From Patescibacteria group bacterium (GTDB taxonomy: Bacteria; Patescibacteriota; UBA1384; XYA2-FULL-43-10), in the NCBI GenBank assembly GCA_041674405.1, contig JBAYVT010000001.1, positions 30,001 through 62,000 on the forward strand: a stretch of DNA of 32,000 nucleotides, read 5' to 3'. The notes beneath the pieces are model-generated. The model worked only from the letters and a program-made list of their open reading frames with translations. It did no database searches and was not told where the DNA came from. Within the stretch, counting starts at the first letter, position 1; each line of letters opens with the position of its first letter. Position numbers and translations under genes: made by a program. Below are positions 5,033 through 11,048 of the stretch, in pieces.

Positions 5033-5843
5033 TAATTCGATAAAAATTATCCTCGCAGGTGAAGGTGGCCAAGGGGTTCAAACAATTGCTAAGGCATTGT
5101 TTAATGCTGCAATTTCTGCTAAATACAATGTTTCATACATTCCCTCTTTTGGTGTCGAACAGCGCGGTACGCCATCTGTGGCTTATATTACGCTGTCTCA
5201 CGGCCAAATACGTTATCCCCGTTTCGAATTTGCTGATGTGGCGCTTGTCATGGGAGAACGAGCAATGGATCGTGTAGCAGGGGTTATCAATCCGAATACG
5301 AAGCTGATTTTCGATACCTCAAACATGGACACAAAAAATTTAAAAAAGCCTTGGGTTAAACGGCTTGGCGTTCCGGCTACCAGATATGCTTTAGAAAAAT
5401 TTTCACCGAAATCATATAACGTATTAATGTATGGTGCTTTGTGCAAAGAGCTTGGTTTTGACCCAAAGATATCGTGGGATTCCATACATAGCATTTTGAA
5501 AGATAAATTTAAAACCAAGGAAATTGCAGAAATGAATCACGATGCGTTTTCTTTCGGTTATGAAATTGTCTTTGAACACAAGAATTTTTCCAAGCCAATC
5601 TATGAGACCAAAAAGACAGATAATATTTTTAGAAATGCCGAAAAGATCGCCACGATCTCGCCCGAAAGATGCAAGGGTTGTGGAATCTGCATAGAAAAAT
5701 GTCCAGTTAAGGCATTATCTTTTGGTGAAGATTTGGGTGTGTTCTCCACTCCGGTTCCAGATATTAACCTTGAAAAATGTATCGCTTGTGGCAATTGTCG
5801 ACGCTACTGTCCCGACGGGGCGATTAAAGTTGATAAAAAATAA
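5025..5843 (+). CDS. 2-oxoacid:ferredoxin oxidoreductase, gamma subunit fused to a C-terminal 2x[4Fe-4S] delta/ferredoxin domain
   Basis: IKIILAGEGGQGVQTIAKAL is a gamma-subunit signature. The C-terminus has CKGCGICIEKCP and CIACGNCRRYCP. The ATG at 5025 overlaps the beta stop as ATGAATAA. The ORF-track start at 4881 would overlap beta by 150 nt. Confidence 0.75.
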   Translation: MNNNSIKIILAGEGGQGVQTIAKALFNAAISAKYNVSYIPSFGVEQRGTPSVAYITLSHGQIRYPRFEFADVALVMGERAMDRVAGVINPNTKLIFDTSNMDTKNLKKPWVKRLGVPATRYALEKFSPKSYNVLMYGALCKELGFDPKISWDSIHSILKDKFKTKEIAEMNHDAFSFGYEIVFEHKNFSKPIYETKKTDNIFRNAEKIATISPERCKGCGICIEKCPVKALSFGEDLGVFSTPVPDINLEKCIACGNCRRYCPDGAIKVDKK

Positions 5844-5852
5844 ATTTAAAAT

Positions 5853-5890
5853 AAAAAATCTGCCTGAATCAAGGGCGGTTTTTTATTTTG
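5853..5890. terminator. bidirectional intrinsic terminator after the oxidoreductase operon and the tRNA-Ala unit
   Basis: AAAAAAT-CTGCC-tgaatcaag-GGCGG-TTTTTTATTTT. 5-bp stem with one G.U pair, an A-run upstream and a T-run downstream. Confidence 0.5.
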
Positions 5891-5966
5891 GTGGACCCGA
5901 TCAGACATTAGAACCCGTTTCACTCTTTCGAAACCCTCGGTTCCGAATAACCTCCTATACGGGCAA
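5889..5966 (-). pseudogene. degenerate tRNA-Ala-like duplicate (tRNA-like remnant or att-type scar)
   Basis: Its 3' 16 nt (CTGATCGGGTCCACCA) are identical to the tRNA-Ala 3' end, and 8 more flanking nt match 7 of 8. A GCCCGTA 5' motif sits at the same offset as in the tRNA. D, anticodon and T arms do not fold canonically. Confidence 0.35.
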
Positions 5967-6052
5967 CTCTTGTTTCCCGACCCCTTCCGGAGCTCAAGCC
6001 TTCTCTTTGGGGAGAACAAATTAAAATAGAGTCGCAAGGACTCATTTTATTC

Positions 6053-6129
6053 TGGTGGACCCGATCAGGCTTGAACTGACGACCTCCTCGATGCCATCGA
6101 GGCGCTCTAGCCAACTGAGCTACGGGCCC
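6053..6129 (-). tRNA. tRNA-Ala (anticodon GGC), CCA encoded
   Basis: Manual cloverleaf: GGGCCCG-TA-GCTC-AGTTGGCTA-GAGC-G-CCTCG-ATGGCAT-CGAGG-AGGTC-GTCAG-TTCAAGC-CTGAT-CGGGTCC-ACCA. The G3:U70 alanine identity pair is present. Confidence 0.95.
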
Positions 6130-6177
6130 AAAATTAACTAATAACTTAAAACTCAAAAGTTAAAACTGAACTAATTT

Positions 6178-6206
6178 ACTATACCTAATTACCAATAATT
6201 AATCAA
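6178..6206 (-). promoter_or_regulatory. sigma70-like promoter candidate for the tRNA-Ala unit
   Basis: Minus strand reads TTGATT-N17-TATAGT, with the -10 hexamer ending about 48 nt upstream of the tRNA 5' end. AT-rich background, so chance matches are possible. Confidence 0.35.
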
Positions 6207-6255
6207 TCCAGAGAGTATATTTCTGTGTTGATCAGTGCGAAAAATCAGAGAAATT

Positions 6256-6780
6256 TTATTCAATACAGCACTCAATTGCACGCTTTACGACCGCACCTAT
6301 TTTACCAAGAAAACCTTTGCCTTTTTCTTCGTGTCGATTGATTTTGGCATCTTCAATTTTAGAAATATTTTTGGAATCGACAATTTTCATATTTAGCGCC
6401 CAAAATAATGAGTACAGATCAAAGGCTTTTTCATAAAATTCTTCTGCCTGTTTGCGGTTTTTTTTGAGATTGACCTTATTTCCCACTTCGATAAGCCGCA
6501 TGGATGCTGCCAAAAGATGCTTTGAAAGGCACCAGATCTCGCCTTCGGGCTCTTTAACCAATTTTTGCATGACTTCTTTGCGTATCTCGCGAACTTCTTT
6601 TAGCATATCGAAATACTTTGTTTTGTTCGTTTTTTCAGCGGTAAAATAAAAATGTTCTTCGATTGAAACCAGGTTCATTACAGCAATTGAAAGATCTTCA
6701 TCAAGAGAAAGGTCAAAACCTTTTTCTTTTGACTCTTCTACTTTTTTGATTAACTTTTGAATTTCTTTGTCATTTGCCAT
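6256..6780 (-). CDS. hypothetical all-helical soluble protein ending in CCIE
   Basis: 174-aa ORF, 4 nt downstream of the membrane-protein gene. No motif I can assign. Confidence 0.6.
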   Translation of the reverse strand: MANDKEIQKLIKKVEESKEKGFDLSLDEDLSIAVMNLVSIEEHFYFTAEKTNKTKYFDMLKEVREIRKEVMQKLVKEPEGEIWCLSKHLLAASMRLIEVGNKVNLKKNRKQAEEFYEKAFDLYSLFWALNMKIVDSKNISKIEDAKINRHEEKGKGFLGKIGAVVKRAIECCIE

Positions 6781-6784
6781 AAAT

Positions 6785-7354
6785 TTATTTTATTACTTTT
6801 ATTTGAATAAGACCGTGTATCAGCAAACTGCCGATGAGGATATATCCGACCGGCATAGCAATTTTCTGGAACGGAAAGTATGAATGATTGTGGTTTTTTC
6901 GTTTTAACGTATTGTAATTTACCAGTGCTAGGACAAATAAAACGGACCCCGCTATCATTCCATCCAGCAATCGATCAATTCCCAAAAAAGTATTTTTAGG
7001 GTGTCCTATAATACCGGTGTAATAAAGCGGTAAGATTGTAATAAAATATAGTGCCAAAGCGGCTAGAGGATAAATATATCTTGGCTCGACTTTTTTTGAT
7101 TTCATCCAATTGAACATCCAGAAAGTAAGAGAAACCATGAGGGCGCCGATCCACATTCCGGTGATAAGATCATCGATCTTAAAATATCGAGAAAGCCCAA
7201 GCCCTGCAGCTACAGCAACAGTACAAACTGGGCAAAAAGCGCTAACAGCAGTAGGAACTAGCGCAATTATCCCAGCAATTGCGATTGCATAAAATTTTGA
7301 TGATCTTAGCTTCATAGGCAAAATAATCATATACAAAAATAATCCTGATTTCAA
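6785..7354 (-). CDS. hypothetical polytopic membrane protein with an intramembrane CPVC motif
   Basis: About five hydrophobic segments. CPVC sits within the first one (AVSAFCPVCTVAVAAGLGL). The true start may be an internal Met (MKLRSSKF). Confidence 0.6.
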   Translation of the reverse strand: MKSGLFLYMIILPMKLRSSKFYAIAIAGIIALVPTAVSAFCPVCTVAVAAGLGLSRYFKIDDLITGMWIGALMVSLTFWMFNWMKSKKVEPRYIYPLAALALYFITILPLYYTGIIGHPKNTFLGIDRLLDGMIAGSVLFVLALVNYNTLKRKNHNHSYFPFQKIAMPVGYILIGSLLIHGLIQIKVIK

Positions 7355-7490
7355 TAGAAATATCAGATTAAATTATAAATAAGCCGTCGAAATTGGTGTG
7401 TGATCTCTTGTATATCATTCTAAAGAAATTTTTAGGTTAGCTTGTTATGATCAAAACACTAAAAATTGAATAAAGGGTCGAAATAACAAA

Positions 7491-7515
7491 AGCAGGCCAT
7501 TGGCCCGCTTTTGTT
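7491..7515. terminator. orphan terminator-like hairpin
   Basis: AGCAGGCC-att-GGCCCGCT (7 of 8 bp) followed by TTTTGTTG, with an A-rich tract upstream. No annotated gene ends here on either strand. Confidence 0.35.
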
Positions 7516-7562
7516 GTATTTAGGCTTAAATTAGGGTAAATTATACTGGTATTTGGGCATTT

Positions 7563-7612
7563 AGTCCCGATGCGTGCCGATCGGGATTCCGAAAGTGTTG
7601 CTCTTCGGGACT
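7563..7612 (+). other. GC-rich stem structure in the putative tRNA-Val leader
   Basis: AGTCCCGA (7563-7570) is the exact reverse complement of TCGGGACT (7605-7612). An alternative inner hairpin is TCCCGAT-gcgtgccg-ATCGGGA. Confidence 0.4.
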
Positions 7613-7634
7613 CAAAGCGTAATTCTAAATATTT

Positions 7635-7709
7635 GGTCGCTTAACTCAGCGGTAGAGTGCTTCGTTCACATCGAAGAAGTCACTGGTTCGAATCCAGTAG
7701 CGACCACCA
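7635..7709 (+). tRNA. tRNA-Val (anticodon CAC), CCA encoded
   Basis: Manual cloverleaf: GGTCGCT-TA-ACTC-AGCGGTA-GAGT-G-CTTCG-TTCACAT-CGAAG-AAGTC-ACTGG-TTCGAAT-CCAGT-AGCGACC-ACCA. Confidence 0.95.
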
Positions 7710-7810
7710 GAACACTCTGATGAGGCCACCCCGACCAGTCGGGGTAATGCCCACCATTCGACTTTCGGTCTTCGCCTGAATCATATGATAAACCAAACTA
7801 ATATTCAATC

Positions 7811-7840
7811 AAAAAATGCCCGCCAGGGCCTTTTGTTTTT
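7811..7840. terminator. bidirectional intrinsic terminator between the tRNA-Val unit and the convergent high-GC ORF
   Basis: AAAAAAT-GCCC-gcca-GGGC-C-TTTTGTTTTT. A-run and T-run flank a 4-bp GC stem. Confidence 0.5.
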
Positions 7841-7908
7841 ATAGACCATGAACGACCCCTTGTGGAGGTCGTCAGGCACTTCTTCTTGGAAGCCAAGAGA
7901 TTCGGCTT

Positions 7909-8274
7909 CTAGGCGATATAGGGACACGGTTTGCCATTCTCATGGATTCCGTGGCAAAGACCACAGACGTACTTGTCTGCGAATACCTCTTGTGGGTGGG
8001 CTTTGGGCGGCTGGTCTTTGAGTGTATAGTGCTCGCCGTTGAAGTCCCAACACATACTAGGACACCACTGCCTAGCCCTCTCGGGAGTATTTCTTACAGC
8101 GTCGTCGCTGTCCAATGCAAACATGGCGGCGACAGCTCGTAGAACCTCCTCTCGGTTGGTCGGATCCTCGACATCCACCTCTGTCTGCGTTGGGAAGGTC
8201 CTCTCTGGAAAGTAGACCCTGATGCGGTGTTTTTCTTCCATGGTGGCGGGTGTCTCACTCCTTTCGTGCGACAC
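7909..8274 (-). CDS. orphan Cys-rich hypothetical protein in a high-GC islet
   Basis: 121-aa ORF from the GTG at 8274, or 110 aa from the ATG at 8241, which is preceded by AAGGAG and GCCACC. About 55% GC versus about 37% nearby. WCPSMC and CGLCHG..KPCP motifs. No family recognised. Confidence 0.5.
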   Translation of the reverse strand: MSHERSETPATMEEKHRIRVYFPERTFPTQTEVDVEDPTNREEVLRAVAAMFALDSDDAVRNTPERARQWCPSMCWDFNGEHYTLKDQPPKAHPQEVFADKYVCGLCHGIHENGKPCPYIA

Positions 8275-8380
8275 CTAATTTATATAACATTTCTGTGTAT
8301 TCGTCAATGATACCTGGTCAAATAGATTTGAATTTAGATTAATGTTATGATTAATTTGGATCATAATTCAGGAGGGAAAT

Positions 8381-8674
8381 ATGCAAATAAAAGAACTTTT
8401 AGCCAAAGGTAAAGAAATCTGGGGCGAACCGGCGGAGCCAATCACGCTCTCATATATTATCGTTCGGATGGGAAAGGTTTTTGGCGACATTTGTCGATGG
8501 GAGCGCAATGCGCCCAAAGACGCCTCTGTCCACTCAGATGACGACTTAAAAAAGGAGCTAGGTAATATAATATTTAGCACGATAAGATGGTGTGATGACC
8601 TCGGATATGATCCTGAAGAGTGCATCAATCTTGCTATTAAGTGTCAAGAAGACGGTCATGCTAAGCTTGCATAA
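8381..8674 (+). CDS. small MazG-fold (NTP pyrophosphohydrolase-like) protein, acidic motifs degenerate
   Basis: Strong RBS (CAGGAGGgaaatATG). KKELGNIIFSTIRWCDDLGYDPEECI resembles the MazG helix pair (EExGDvl..la..lgid.eea). Confidence 0.55.
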   Translation: MQIKELLAKGKEIWGEPAEPITLSYIIVRMGKVFGDICRWERNAPKDASVHSDDDLKKELGNIIFSTIRWCDDLGYDPEECINLAIKCQEDGHAKLA

Positions 8675-8680
8675 TTATTC

Positions 8681-8709
8681 TTGAAAAAACCTCAATTTTA
8701 TGCGATAAT
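8681..8709 (+). promoter_or_regulatory. sigma70-like promoter candidate for rpmF-nusB-rnc
   Basis: TTGAAA-N17-GATAAT, about 34 nt upstream of the rpmF ATG. Confidence 0.4.
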
Positions 8710-8742
8710 GCTGAAGTATAAGAATTAAACATGTGAGAGAAA

Positions 8743-8949
8743 ATGGCAGAACCAAAGAAAAGGACAAACAATTCAAAGCAAGGCATGCGTAGAATGCATG
8801 ACAAGAAATCTGTTTCCGGGCTAAATTATTGTCCAAATTGCAAAGAGCCGAAGAGAATGCACTCAGTTTGTGATAGCTGCGGTTTTTATAATGGGAAATT
8901 GGTTATCGAACAGAAAAAAGAAAAAACTGATTCATCCGTAAAAGAATAG
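8743..8949 (+). CDS. rpmF: 50S ribosomal protein L32 (Zn-ribbon form)
   Basis: MAEPKKRTNNSKQGMRRMHD..CPNCKEPKRMHSVCDSCGFYNGK matches the L32 pattern. Confidence 0.9.
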   Translation: MAEPKKRTNNSKQGMRRMHDKKSVSGLNYCPNCKEPKRMHSVCDSCGFYNGKLVIEQKKEKTDSSVKE

Positions 8950-8969
8950 AAATTAATTTTTTTTGATAA

Positions 8970-9401
8970 ATGAATCGACATCTTGGTAGAATGATCGCAA
9001 TGCAGACACTTTTCGAATATGATTTTCGAGATGGTGCTGATGTTGAGGAAATAAAATCTCGCAATATTAACGAGTATAATGATGCAACCGACTCAGAATT
9101 TGTAGTGAAGCTTGTTGATGGTACACTTAAATCTACTGAGTCTATTGACGAAGAAATCAAAGCAGCAGCTCCGGAATGGCCCCTGGATCAAATATCGCTT
9201 ATTGATAAATCAATTCTTCGCCTTGCTATTTATGAACTTAAATACGAGAATGACGTGCCTGCTAAAGTTGTTATAAATGAAGCAGTTGAGTTGGGAAAAC
9301 AATTTGGTGGAGAAAATTCATCGAAATTTATCAACGGCGTTCTCGGAACTGTTTATGAGAAAATAACTTCTGGAGACAATAAAAAAAGTGACGACAATTG
9401 A
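8970..9401 (+). CDS. nusB: transcription antitermination factor NusB
   Basis: RMIAMQTLFEYDF, INEAVELGKQFGGENSSKFINGVLG. Confidence 0.9.
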   Translation: MNRHLGRMIAMQTLFEYDFRDGADVEEIKSRNINEYNDATDSEFVVKLVDGTLKSTESIDEEIKAAAPEWPLDQISLIDKSILRLAIYELKYENDVPAKVVINEAVELGKQFGGENSSKFINGVLGTVYEKITSGDNKKSDDN

Positions 9402-10086
9402 TTTTGAAAAAGTTATCGGTATTGAATTTAAAAACAAAGATCTTTTAAATAACGTATTTATTCATCGATCGTATTTAAATGAGCACAGAAGCTTGCAGCT
9501 CGAACATAATGAAAGATTAGAATTTTTAGGAGATGCTGTTCTGGAGCTTTGCGTGACACAATACTTATTTAACAAATTTTCCGATAAGCCTGAAGGTGTC
9601 ATGACCAACTGGAGATCCGCGCTTGTAAAAGGTGAATCTCTCTCTGCCGAGGCTAAGCGCCTTGGTTTAAATGATCTTATAAAGACATCTCGCGGAGAAG
9701 CTAAAAATGTCGGAAAAGCGCGAGACTTGATACTGGCTAATGCGTTTGAGGCTTTGATAGGTGCAATATATCTTGACCAAGGGTATGAAATTGCATACAA
9801 ATTTATTGAAAAAAATATTATTTATAAACTTGCCGAAATTATCAACCAAGGTTTATATTACGATTCAAAAAGTAAATTTCAAGAACTCGCACAAGATGTT
9901 TTAAGTATTACGCCGTCATACACTACTGTTTCCGAGAATGGGCCCGATCATGCCAAGGTTTTTGTTGTCGGCGCATTTCTGGGAGACAAAAAAGTCGCTG
10001 AGGGATCAGGCAACTCTAAACAAAAAGCACAAAGTGAAGCAGCTAAAGCCGCCCTTCAAAAATGGGACGATATTTGTAAACAATAG
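9388..10086 (+). CDS. rnc: ribonuclease III
   Basis: GTG start overlapping the nusB end. NERLEFLGDAVLEL catalytic signature. C-terminal dsRBD (GPDHAKVF..GSGNSKQKAQSEAAKAAL). Confidence 0.9.
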   Translation: MTTIDFEKVIGIEFKNKDLLNNVFIHRSYLNEHRSLQLEHNERLEFLGDAVLELCVTQYLFNKFSDKPEGVMTNWRSALVKGESLSAEAKRLGLNDLIKTSRGEAKNVGKARDLILANAFEALIGAIYLDQGYEIAYKFIEKNIIYKLAEIINQGLYYDSKSKFQELAQDVLSITPSYTTVSENGPDHAKVFVVGAFLGDKKVAEGSGNSKQKAQSEAAKAALQKWDDICKQ

Positions 10087-10091
10087 CTCTA

Positions 10092-11048
10092 TTAGTTGAA
10101 CCACTTGATATTGGTAAATCCCCAATCAAGCAATTTTCGCGATTCATCAGCTGAGGCTGGCGCTGTGTCAGCGTAAGTGTGTAAAACAATGCCTATTAGC
10201 GTGTGTCCATCTCTTTTTGCGGCTGAGACAAGGCAATGTCCAGCTTCGGGCATATAACCGGTTTTAACGCCAATTGCCCCGGGATATTGGTATTCCCCGA
10301 CCAACCTGTTTGAATTTTTTAATTCGTGGTAAATACTATTGTCAATGTTGGTAGCGGTATATTCTTGCGTGTTTACAATTTCCCTAAACTTTTCAAATCG
10401 CATGGCGTATTTCGTCGCAAGAAACAAGTCATATGCACTTGAATAGCCGGCTACATCAAGACCCGCCGGGTCTAAATAATTGGTATTTTTCATTCCTAGG
10501 CGTGCTGCTGTTTCATTCATTTTGGAAACAAAGTCCGCTGTGCTAGAGTTGTCTTTTGACATGTGCTGAGCTAATGCATAAGCGGAATCATTACCTGATT
10601 TAATTAATAAGCAATGCAGCAAATCATCTACGCTGATTTTTTCTCCGACTTGTAAATATGCATCGGCACCGATCTGGTAGGCAGCCTCTGGAGTTATTGT
10701 AACTATATCGTCCAATTTGTAATTTTCGAGTACAACTATAGCAGTCATGATTTTTGTTGTTGATGCAATTGGTACTCTTGTATTAGAATCATATGAAGTA
10801 AAAATTGTGCCGCTGTCCATATCGGCTAAAAGATAGTGATTTGCGTTAATATTTGGGTTTGGGGCATTTTTTGAAACCTGCGGGCGAATTACAACTTCTG
10901 GCAAAGATAGATCAATCATTGATGCTGCCGCAGTATTTTTTGAACCATTTTCGTCCTTATATATCGCATTATCCAATTTGAAAACGATCGGAGAAAACCC
11001 AATCAAATTAAAAAAAATTGACATCGCGATTATAGATTTTAGAATCAT
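10092..11048 (-). CDS. serine-type D-Ala-D-Ala carboxypeptidase (peptidase S11, PBP5/6-like)
   Basis: N-terminal signal/anchor. SxxK (ASTTKIMTA), SxN (SGND) and KTG motifs in the correct order. Confidence 0.85.
   Translation of the reverse strand: MILKSIIAMSIFFNLIGFSPIVFKLDNAIYKDENGSKNTAAASMIDLSLPEVVIRPQVSKNAPNPNINANHYLLADMDSGTIFTSYDSNTRVPIASTTKIMTAIVVLENYKLDDIVTITPEAAYQIGADAYLQVGEKISVDDLLHCLLIKSGNDSAYALAQHMSKDNSSTADFVSKMNETAARLGMKNTNYLDPAGLDVAGYSSAYDLFLATKYAMRFEKFREIVNTQEYTATNIDNSIYHELKNSNRLVGEYQYPGAIGVKTGYMPEAGHCLVSAAKRDGHTLIGIVLHTYADTAPASADESRKLLDWGFTNIKWFN

Follow-up and report, generated by a model that had tools for sequence, protein, structure and literature searches.

Organization of the tRNA-Val locus

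The stretch of DNA analysed here, referred to as the window, comprises 32,000 nucleotides (nt) of a Patescibacteria group bacterium (G000:C1:30001-62000), whose genome of 929 kb in 7 contigs is 98.7% complete and has a GC content of 42%. The 40 relatives used for comparison all have genomes of 0.5-1.5 Mb, the type found in the Candidate Phyla Radiation (CPR, Patescibacteria). The subject of this study is a small GC-rich islet on the 3' side of a tRNA-Val gene in this window and the orphan open reading frame (ORF) within it, designated P0001. A first-pass annotation, made from the letters of the sequence, had described the islet as a possibly foreign segment at 7710-8275. The features of the locus are listed below, with positions counted from the first letter of the window.

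7549-7618, plus strand: hairpin-rich leader motif upstream of tRNA-Val with a 10-nt tRNA-like 5' end (GGGCATTTAG); outside the islet, part of the tRNA-Val unit
7635-7709, plus strand: functional tRNA-Val(CAC), found by ARAGORN and by Rfam (69 bits); sole gene with a CAC anticodon in the genome
7713-8369: block of about 657 nt that is extra relative to the 'empty site' of genome G011, which reads tRNA-Val CCA-gaa...aggagggaa-ATG of the mazG-like gene
7722-7756, plus strand: relic 3' half of a second-type tRNA-Val(CAC), with variable loop, a hairpin replacing the T arm, acceptor 3' strand and ACCA
7757-7817: AT-rich spacer between the tRNA relic and the GC-rich cassette, 31% GC
7818-7840: GCCC/GGGC hairpin with a 4-bp stem between an A-run and a T-run, as read from the sequence
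7852-7909, minus strand: two GC hairpins at the 3' end of the ORF transcript, ACGACC/GGTCGT at 7852-7872 and GAAGCC/GGCTTC at 7889-7909, the latter touching the TAG stop
7909-8241, minus strand: orphan ORF P0001, 110 amino acids, isoelectric point 5.3, 5 Cys; an alternative GTG start at 8274 gives 121 amino acids
8242-8275, minus strand: 5' leader with AAGGAG at 8258-8263 and the start context GCCACCATGG
8276-8369: AT-rich divergent spacer, about 27% GC, with promoter-like hexamers and the palindrome TTATGAT-n8-ATCATAA at 8345-8366
8381-8674, plus strand: mazG-like gene of 97 amino acids with weak, concordant MazG matches in Pfam, PHROG and NCBIfam; the conserved right anchor of the site

The hand counts of GC content in the first-pass annotation were exact: 66/120 (55%) at 8041-8160, 22/60 (36.7%) at 9001-9060 and 16/60 (26.7%) at 8281-8340. 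A windowed GC profile confirmed the deviation but not a single continuous block running from the CCA of tRNA-Val to the start of the ORF, as had been proposed. At 50-nt resolution the islet is composite: a GC-rich part at 7700-7749 and the AT-rich spacer are followed by the GC-rich block proper at 7845-8275, which has 54.5% GC against 42% genome-wide.

The tRNA-Val beside the islet was correctly identified before, and is 95-97% identical to the tRNA-Val(CAC) of four relatives (G011, G016, G014 and G032). The tRNA relic begins 12 nt past this functional gene and carries a CCCCG/CGGGG hairpin in T-arm position. Compared to the 3' half of the tRNA-Val(CAC) of genome G037, GAGGCCAC is identical in 8/8 and GTAATGCCCACCA in 13/13 positions. 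The first 47 nt of the islet as originally delimited are thus a tRNA relic, the scar of an older rearrangement at the locus.

The leader upstream of tRNA-Val belongs to a hairpin-rich element of about 65 nt that is present in two copies in the genome (window 7549-7618 and G000:C1:240349-240769, locus L101), both with the 10-nt tRNA-like 5' end. The paralogous leader itself (G000:C1:240349-240421) shows 82% identity and precedes an 86-amino-acid GIY-YIG gene (PF01541, 3.8e-11), with tRNA-Val(GAC) following 4 nt further on. The unit of leader, GIY-YIG gene and tRNA-Val looks like a nuclease-associated tRNA-Val cassette, of which the window would hold a copy without the nuclease.

All three GC hairpins described earlier (7889-7909, 7852-7872 and 7818-7840) were found in place, and those at 7852-7872 and 7889-7909 are present in both the minimum free energy fold and the centroid fold. 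The hairpin at 7818-7840 is a probable bidirectional terminator, common to the convergent tRNA-Val unit and the ORF; with a stem of only 4 pairs it received no score in a simple terminator scan. At the other end of the islet, promoter-like hexamers were seen at 8387-8360 and a TATAAAT near 8285, which are consensus matches only. The palindrome at 8345-8366 is located directly upstream of the ribosome-binding site of the mazG-like gene and is a candidate operator.

Authenticity of the islet

The islet is genuine chromosomal DNA. Four assemblies of different samples (a 395-kb ENA contig, a 5.2-kb JGI contig and two Logan run assemblies) encode exactly the same P0001, each time with the same neighbours, and the islet and its surroundings are 100% identical over 1.9-12 kb among these assemblies, which come from three pipelines. 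The JGI contig has eight differences, all at its end (10356-10416), and the islet is without polymorphism. Single Logan contigs from three runs (two landfill, one groundwater) join the 3' part of tRNA-Val, the islet, the mazG-like gene, rpmF and nusB with zero mismatches. Contig depths of the islet in three samples were 11.2, 5.6 and 6.5 against 12.9, 5.7-8.3 and 3.5-4.5 for the flanks, so that at contig level coverage stays at that of the flanks without a break. Misassembly and contamination, which had been suggested as the alternative to acquisition, are rejected because of these identical junctions in four assemblies and the flank-level depth. The deviating composition is the one observation in favour of an assembly chimera or contaminating DNA, and about 90 similar islets sit inside long contigs; an artefact is considered next to inconceivable.

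P0001 and its predicted product

P0001 is the minus-strand ORF of 110-121 amino acids reported before, running over 7909-8241 from its ATG or up to 8274 from the GTG. The repeated use of AGG noticed earlier is real, as AGG accounts for 4 of its 8 Arg codons and for only 15% in either gene class of the genome. The protein also has the cysteine motifs WCPSMC and CGLCHG; however, the gap from the latter to the last Cys is 7 residues instead of the 6 given. The start context had been described as a bacterial Shine-Dalgarno sequence combined with a perfect Kozak-type sequence. Both sequences exist, but the AAGGAG is misplaced at 16 nt from the ATG, and the Kozak reading of GCCACCATGG was discarded: this likeness is put down to chance because the genome holds 2 copies where about 0.8 are expected from composition.

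The evidence for P0001 being a coding sequence was graded as moderate. Its frame tops all six frames by codon and amino-acid scores. With a codon model trained on high-GC genes the frame scored +6.7 bits and the other five -1.5 to -56, and its codon log-odds prefer the high-GC gene model over the native low-GC model by about 32 bits; GC content at third codon positions (GC3) is 62%. The universal codon signature, with G in the first and A in the second position, amounts to 36% and 38%, respectively, in P0001. Furthermore, its amino-acid composition deviates from that of random ORFs of equal base composition (z = +1.9, p = 0.02), being low in Leu and Ser and high in Glu and Asp, unlike random GC-rich frames. 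The length of the ORF has a probability of 0.025-0.05 under a Markov null, and P0001 was called by the gene callers of three sources. P0001 is regarded as a probable, presumably translated gene.

The remark in the first-pass annotation that the protein falls in no recognizable family was borne out. No family was found for P0001 in Pfam, NCBIfam or PADLOC and no homologue among PDB sequences. Searches of 5.8 billion proteins (word-based) and 1.84 billion representatives (full HMMER) yielded P0001 itself and P0002 and no other homologue; P0002 was dismissed as a repetitive junk ORF. In total, some 15 billion proteins (about 15 billion) and 440 genomes of relatives were covered without a homologue. 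Phage, plasmid and IMG/VR collections contained no match to P0001 or the islet (tblastn/blastn). Rfam 15, run on 5500-9500 with E values up to 1, matched the two tRNAs and nothing in the islet.

P0001 is acidic and without a hydrophobic leader. Its knuckles CPSMC and CGLCHG are 28 residues apart, and its neighbours in a language-model search, to be taken as leads only, are zinc-ribbon clusters with scores of at most 0.82. P0001 is probably a small zinc-ribbon-like protein. The product would be small, acidic and cytoplasmic, with a C-terminal half forming a zinc-ribbon-like site of four cysteines (C60, C64, C93 and C96), and would probably bind a nucleic acid or a protein partner.

It could also be asked whether P0001 is a miniature HNH-like (beta-beta-alpha-metal) nuclease, a free-standing homing-type gene tied to remodelling of the tRNA-Val locus. 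In an HNH finger a catalytic His...Asn...His arrangement is combined with flanking Cys pairs. P0001 gave a weak match over residues 53-98 to the PHROG model phrog_11604 'HNH endonuclease' (E = 0.017, 15.7 bits), the only match of this model in the genome. The order Cx3C, x6, EH, x17, D, x3, CxxCH, with a strand-strand-helix predicted at 64-90 in a model of low confidence, may recall such a finger, and a GIY-YIG gene is present in the paralogous leader and tRNA-Val(GAC) unit. However, the Pfam HNH models gave nothing at E values up to 1, and P0001 aligns to positions 42-83 of phrog_11604 only, while true members from Patescibacteria cover positions 58-130. The Asn is absent: by eye, P0001 has C60/C64, E70-H71, D89 at the Asn position and C93-x2-C96-H97. 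The language-model search returned zinc-ribbon leads only, and for a mobile nuclease family relatives are expected, of which none were found for P0001. A nuclease of this kind is kept as a weak lead and regarded as very improbable.

The insertion site in related genomes

In G011, a member of the same order but of another family, a spacer of 18 nt separates a 95% identical tRNA-Val(CAC) from a mazG-like homologue (57% identity), compared to 671 nt in the window. The ribosome-binding stretch AGGAGGGAA(A)T in front of the mazG-like gene is kept in both genomes. The difference between 18 and 671 nt identifies 7713-8369 as extra DNA, which confirms an additional segment at the 3' flank of tRNA-Val, with the G011 site unoccupied.

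P0001 and the islet DNA were not found in the 40 close relatives or in 18 metagenome loci that are syntenic for rpmF-nusB-rnc, and 400 genomes across the phylum yielded only chance matches of 22-34 nt to the islet DNA. A search for sister species via NusB in metagenomes returned only family-level relatives with 58-67% identity. Within its own genome the islet DNA, including the ORF, is single-copy.

The gene order around the islet differs from that of the family relatives, in which the interval reads tRNA-Ala(GGC), a small ORF, leuS and rpmF. Here the same interval is occupied by a pair of unknown genes, tRNA-Val, the islet and the mazG-like gene, followed by rpmF, nusB and rnc. The leuS gene is now found 118 kb away (G000:C1:156113-159541), and about 400 nt, possibly an insertion, interrupt its tblastn match. 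The small ORF beside tRNA-Ala(GGC) in four of the five family relatives (L020:2389-2844, L021:1781-2080, L023:2162-2656 and L024:5348-5722) encodes 99-164 amino acids, has 52-57% GC and contains Cys; in one relative it shows a clear CPEC...CPVC zinc ribbon. These ORFs are not similar to P0001 at protein or DNA level nor to each other, except for a 35-nt match between L020 and L024.

The right-hand neighbour has its own link to tRNA-Val. Homologues of the mazG-like gene with 57-69% identity occur in five family-f2 genomes, in two of them beside tRNA-Val genes, and were not found in the seven genomes of the window's own family. Linkage of the mazG-like gene to tRNA-Val genes was seen in three genomes of two families (L095 and L093 among the loci). 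In G037, two tandem copies lie between tRNA-Val(GAC) and the second-type tRNA-Val(CAC).

A class of high-GC genes

The GC content of ORFs in this genome is bimodal. About 90 of the 895 ORFs, spread over all contigs, have at least 52% GC (52-63%) and GC3 values of up to 0.82. Windows of the same size that are as GC-rich as the islet make up 4.3% of the genome, and many windows reach 60-70% GC. Because of these windows and the equally GC-rich ORFs, the GC content of the islet is not exceptional for its own genome; it is no one-off but an ordinary instance of a pattern that recurs, and the composition and codon usage of P0001 fit the high-GC class and not the native class of genes.

Large members of the high-GC class are real enzymes: a 1298-amino-acid PurL, a PurC-PurE fusion, an aminotransferase, an M48 peptidase and a methyltransferase. 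Examples are located at C1:90132-94031 and C3:109215-110591 and include the single-chain PurL and the PurC-PurE fusion. To our knowledge, purine-biosynthesis enzymes are usually lacking in CPR bacteria. The PurC-PurE fusion is patchily distributed, as it is present in 2 of the 40 relatives, where its GC content is also above that of the flanks. Insect and human PAICS are its best matches of solved structure, and a donor search in species genomes yielded nothing. All ten small high-GC ORFs tested were without a Pfam family, and no paralogy was detected among the high-GC genes. These genes lie beside tRNAs in 11% versus 6% of cases, a difference that is not significant (p = 0.07).

Folding of the mRNA was compared between gene sets by means of z scores. 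The middle 330 nt of every ORF were folded and set against codon-permuted versions, in which codon usage, protein composition and 3-periodicity are preserved. The mean z scores were as follows.

High-GC ORFs of this genome: -1.89 (n = 70)
High-GC ORFs of at least 200 amino acids: -1.93 (n = 35)
Low-GC ORFs of this genome: -0.14 (n = 40)
E. coli K-12 genes (52% GC): -0.49 (n = 42)
Mycobacteriophage L5 genes (62% GC): -0.80 (n = 49)

Folding in the high-GC class differs from that in E. coli with p = 1.5e-6 and from that in phage L5 with p = 2e-4. P0001 itself has z = -2.0 by codon permutation, and dinucleotide shuffles gave -2.6 for the sense and 0.0 for the antisense strand. The whole of 7710-8275 scored -4.55 on the minus strand and -3.1 on the plus strand. 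The islet thus shares a folding property of its class that goes beyond GC content.

Origin of the islet

We lean towards the view that the islet was horizontally acquired without an integrase, as a lineage-specific, one-gene, GC-rich cassette. In this scenario about 657 nt (7713-8369) were added between the tRNA-Val(CAC) and the mazG-like gene, which abut in the relative. The core at 7845-8275 would be a self-contained, moron-like minus-strand unit, in which an AT-rich promoter-like upstream region and the 110-codon ORF are followed by two GC hairpins and by a terminator that also serves the convergent tRNA unit. The tRNA flank carries other scars of rearrangement, and illegitimate or homology-independent recombination may have brought foreign GC-rich DNA into it. 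Horizontal transfer is documented in these bacteria, up to 13% of genome length in Patescibacteria having been attributed to it (PMC12455944). The stretch 7713-8369 holds no integrase or recombinase, as P0001 is its sole ORF and belongs to no recombinase family. Beyond the ORF, a search allowing up to 3 mismatches found neither tRNA-Val 3' end again, and no att-like repeats were seen. Because a distal tRNA end and an integrase are both lacking, the cassette is not bracketed in the way of an integrase-borne island. Classical integration targeted at the tRNA is not supported by these results, nor by the distribution of high-GC genes, which are not significantly enriched beside tRNAs, and the suggested phage origin received no direct support, as searches of phage genomes, PHROG and IMG/VR gave no real match. 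Of the earlier proposal of a recently acquired fragment, the extra DNA and the deviating composition and codon usage stand; its recency is not datable.

Several observations weigh against acquisition of a coding cassette. The coding scores of P0001 are only marginally significant, an AlphaFold2 single-sequence model reached a pLDDT of 46, and the 16 nt between AAGGAG and ATG contrast with a GGAG-to-start spacing that peaks at 4-5 nt in this genome. There is no population variation in the islet that could support an analysis of dN/dS (the ratio of nonsynonymous to synonymous substitution rates). The comparator G011 is distant, being related at the level of the order, from another family and with a mazG-like protein that is 57% identical. 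Since neither a donor nor a homologue was found, the case for a horizontal origin is made by composition and the empty site. In addition, unrelated small GC-rich, Cys-containing ORFs occur in the syntenic tRNA-Ala to rpmF interval of family relatives, and the excess of mRNA structure in high-GC genes, which is absent from ordinary GC-rich genes, hints at a maintained property more than at simple import.

An alternative is that P0001 is a native, fast-evolving, lineage-specific gene from a class that is kept GC-rich and strongly base-paired at the mRNA level, with no recent import. The folding excess is not explained by GC content alone, and this alternative is kept alive for that reason: the class folds far more tightly than the low-GC ORFs, E. 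coli genes and L5 genes, P0001 does so on the sense and not on the antisense strand, and its whole minus-strand unit scores -4.55. The PurC-PurE homologues in two relatives are GC-elevated over their flanks too, and small GC-rich ORFs occupy the syntenic interval in four of five family relatives. On the other hand, no homologue of P0001 was found at any distance, the islet ORFs of the relatives resemble neither P0001 nor one another, the empty site of G011 indicates that the site can be unoccupied, and the structure excess could also have been inherited from a donor. A native origin of this kind is considered unlikely. The broader version of this idea, in which the islet is a member of a genome-wide class whose high GC content and strong mRNA pairing are held by selection instead of being a decaying signature of import, is doubtful, although it deserves slightly more credit.

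Finally, the segment might not code for protein at all, the open frame having arisen by chance in captured GC-rich DNA, or the DNA giving rise to a structured non-coding RNA. A 121-codon ORF in DNA of 54% GC has a P of only 0.025-0.05, other frames also hold ORFs of 54-66 codons, and the Cys content of 4.5% is near the level of random GC-rich ORFs. The badly spaced Shine-Dalgarno sequence, the lack of homologues and of a confident fold, and the negative folding scores of both strands are in line with this explanation. The P0001 frame is nevertheless the best of six, with the G1/A2 signature, low Leu and Ser and high Glu and Asp; it was called by gene callers of three sources, and Rfam gave no match. 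A non-coding segment is judged just as unlikely as a native gene, and acquisition of a GC-rich cassette remains the favoured interpretation.

Taken by itself, the orphan is an unremarkable accessory gene of a compositional islet and has little to teach before its protein is characterised. As a clean example of an empty site the islet illustrates how GC-rich units of a single gene may enter CPR genomes beside tRNA genes in the absence of an integrase. The wider interest lies in the finding that about 10% of the genes form a distinct high-GC class, the tight folding of which is not accounted for by composition, by codon usage or by comparison with two GC-matched control sets. Should selection be responsible for this excess, accessory genes of ultra-small bacteria would have a property that acts at the RNA level; maintenance of the class by selection would amount to an undescribed RNA-level constraint, imposed on the stability, processing or regulation of a particular group of genes.

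Comparison with known systems

The predicted product differs from zinc-ribbon proteins in that the first knuckle is Cx3C instead of CxxC, no Pfam zinc-ribbon model matches and the fold is not confidently predicted. Like zinc-ribbon and rubredoxin-knuckle proteins, P0001 is small and has two Cys knuckles (CPSMC and CGLCHG) at a distance of about 28 residues. The islet resembles the compositional islets and ORFans attributed to horizontal transfer (PMC12455944) in GC content, codon usage, absence from relatives and insertion between conserved neighbours. It differs from these in being a unit of about 0.43 kb with one gene, no mobility gene, no flanking repeats and no donor or homologue found. 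Phage morons are likewise one-gene units of atypical composition, with an AT-rich promoter-like region and terminator hairpins, inserted between unrelated genes. The islet, however, has no prophage context, its neighbours being tRNA, mazG-like, rpmF, nusB and rnc genes, and its putative promoter and terminator are read from sequence only. Integrative islands that target tRNA genes carry a tyrosine or serine integrase and are bounded by attL and attR, which duplicate the 3' end of the tRNA. In contrast to these, the islet has no integrase and no distal repeat, and the relic tRNA is proximal instead of distal and derives from the other tRNA-Val type. What it does share with such islands is its place on the 3' side of a tRNA gene, a nearby relic of a tRNA-Val 3' half and the existence of an occupied and an empty form of the site.

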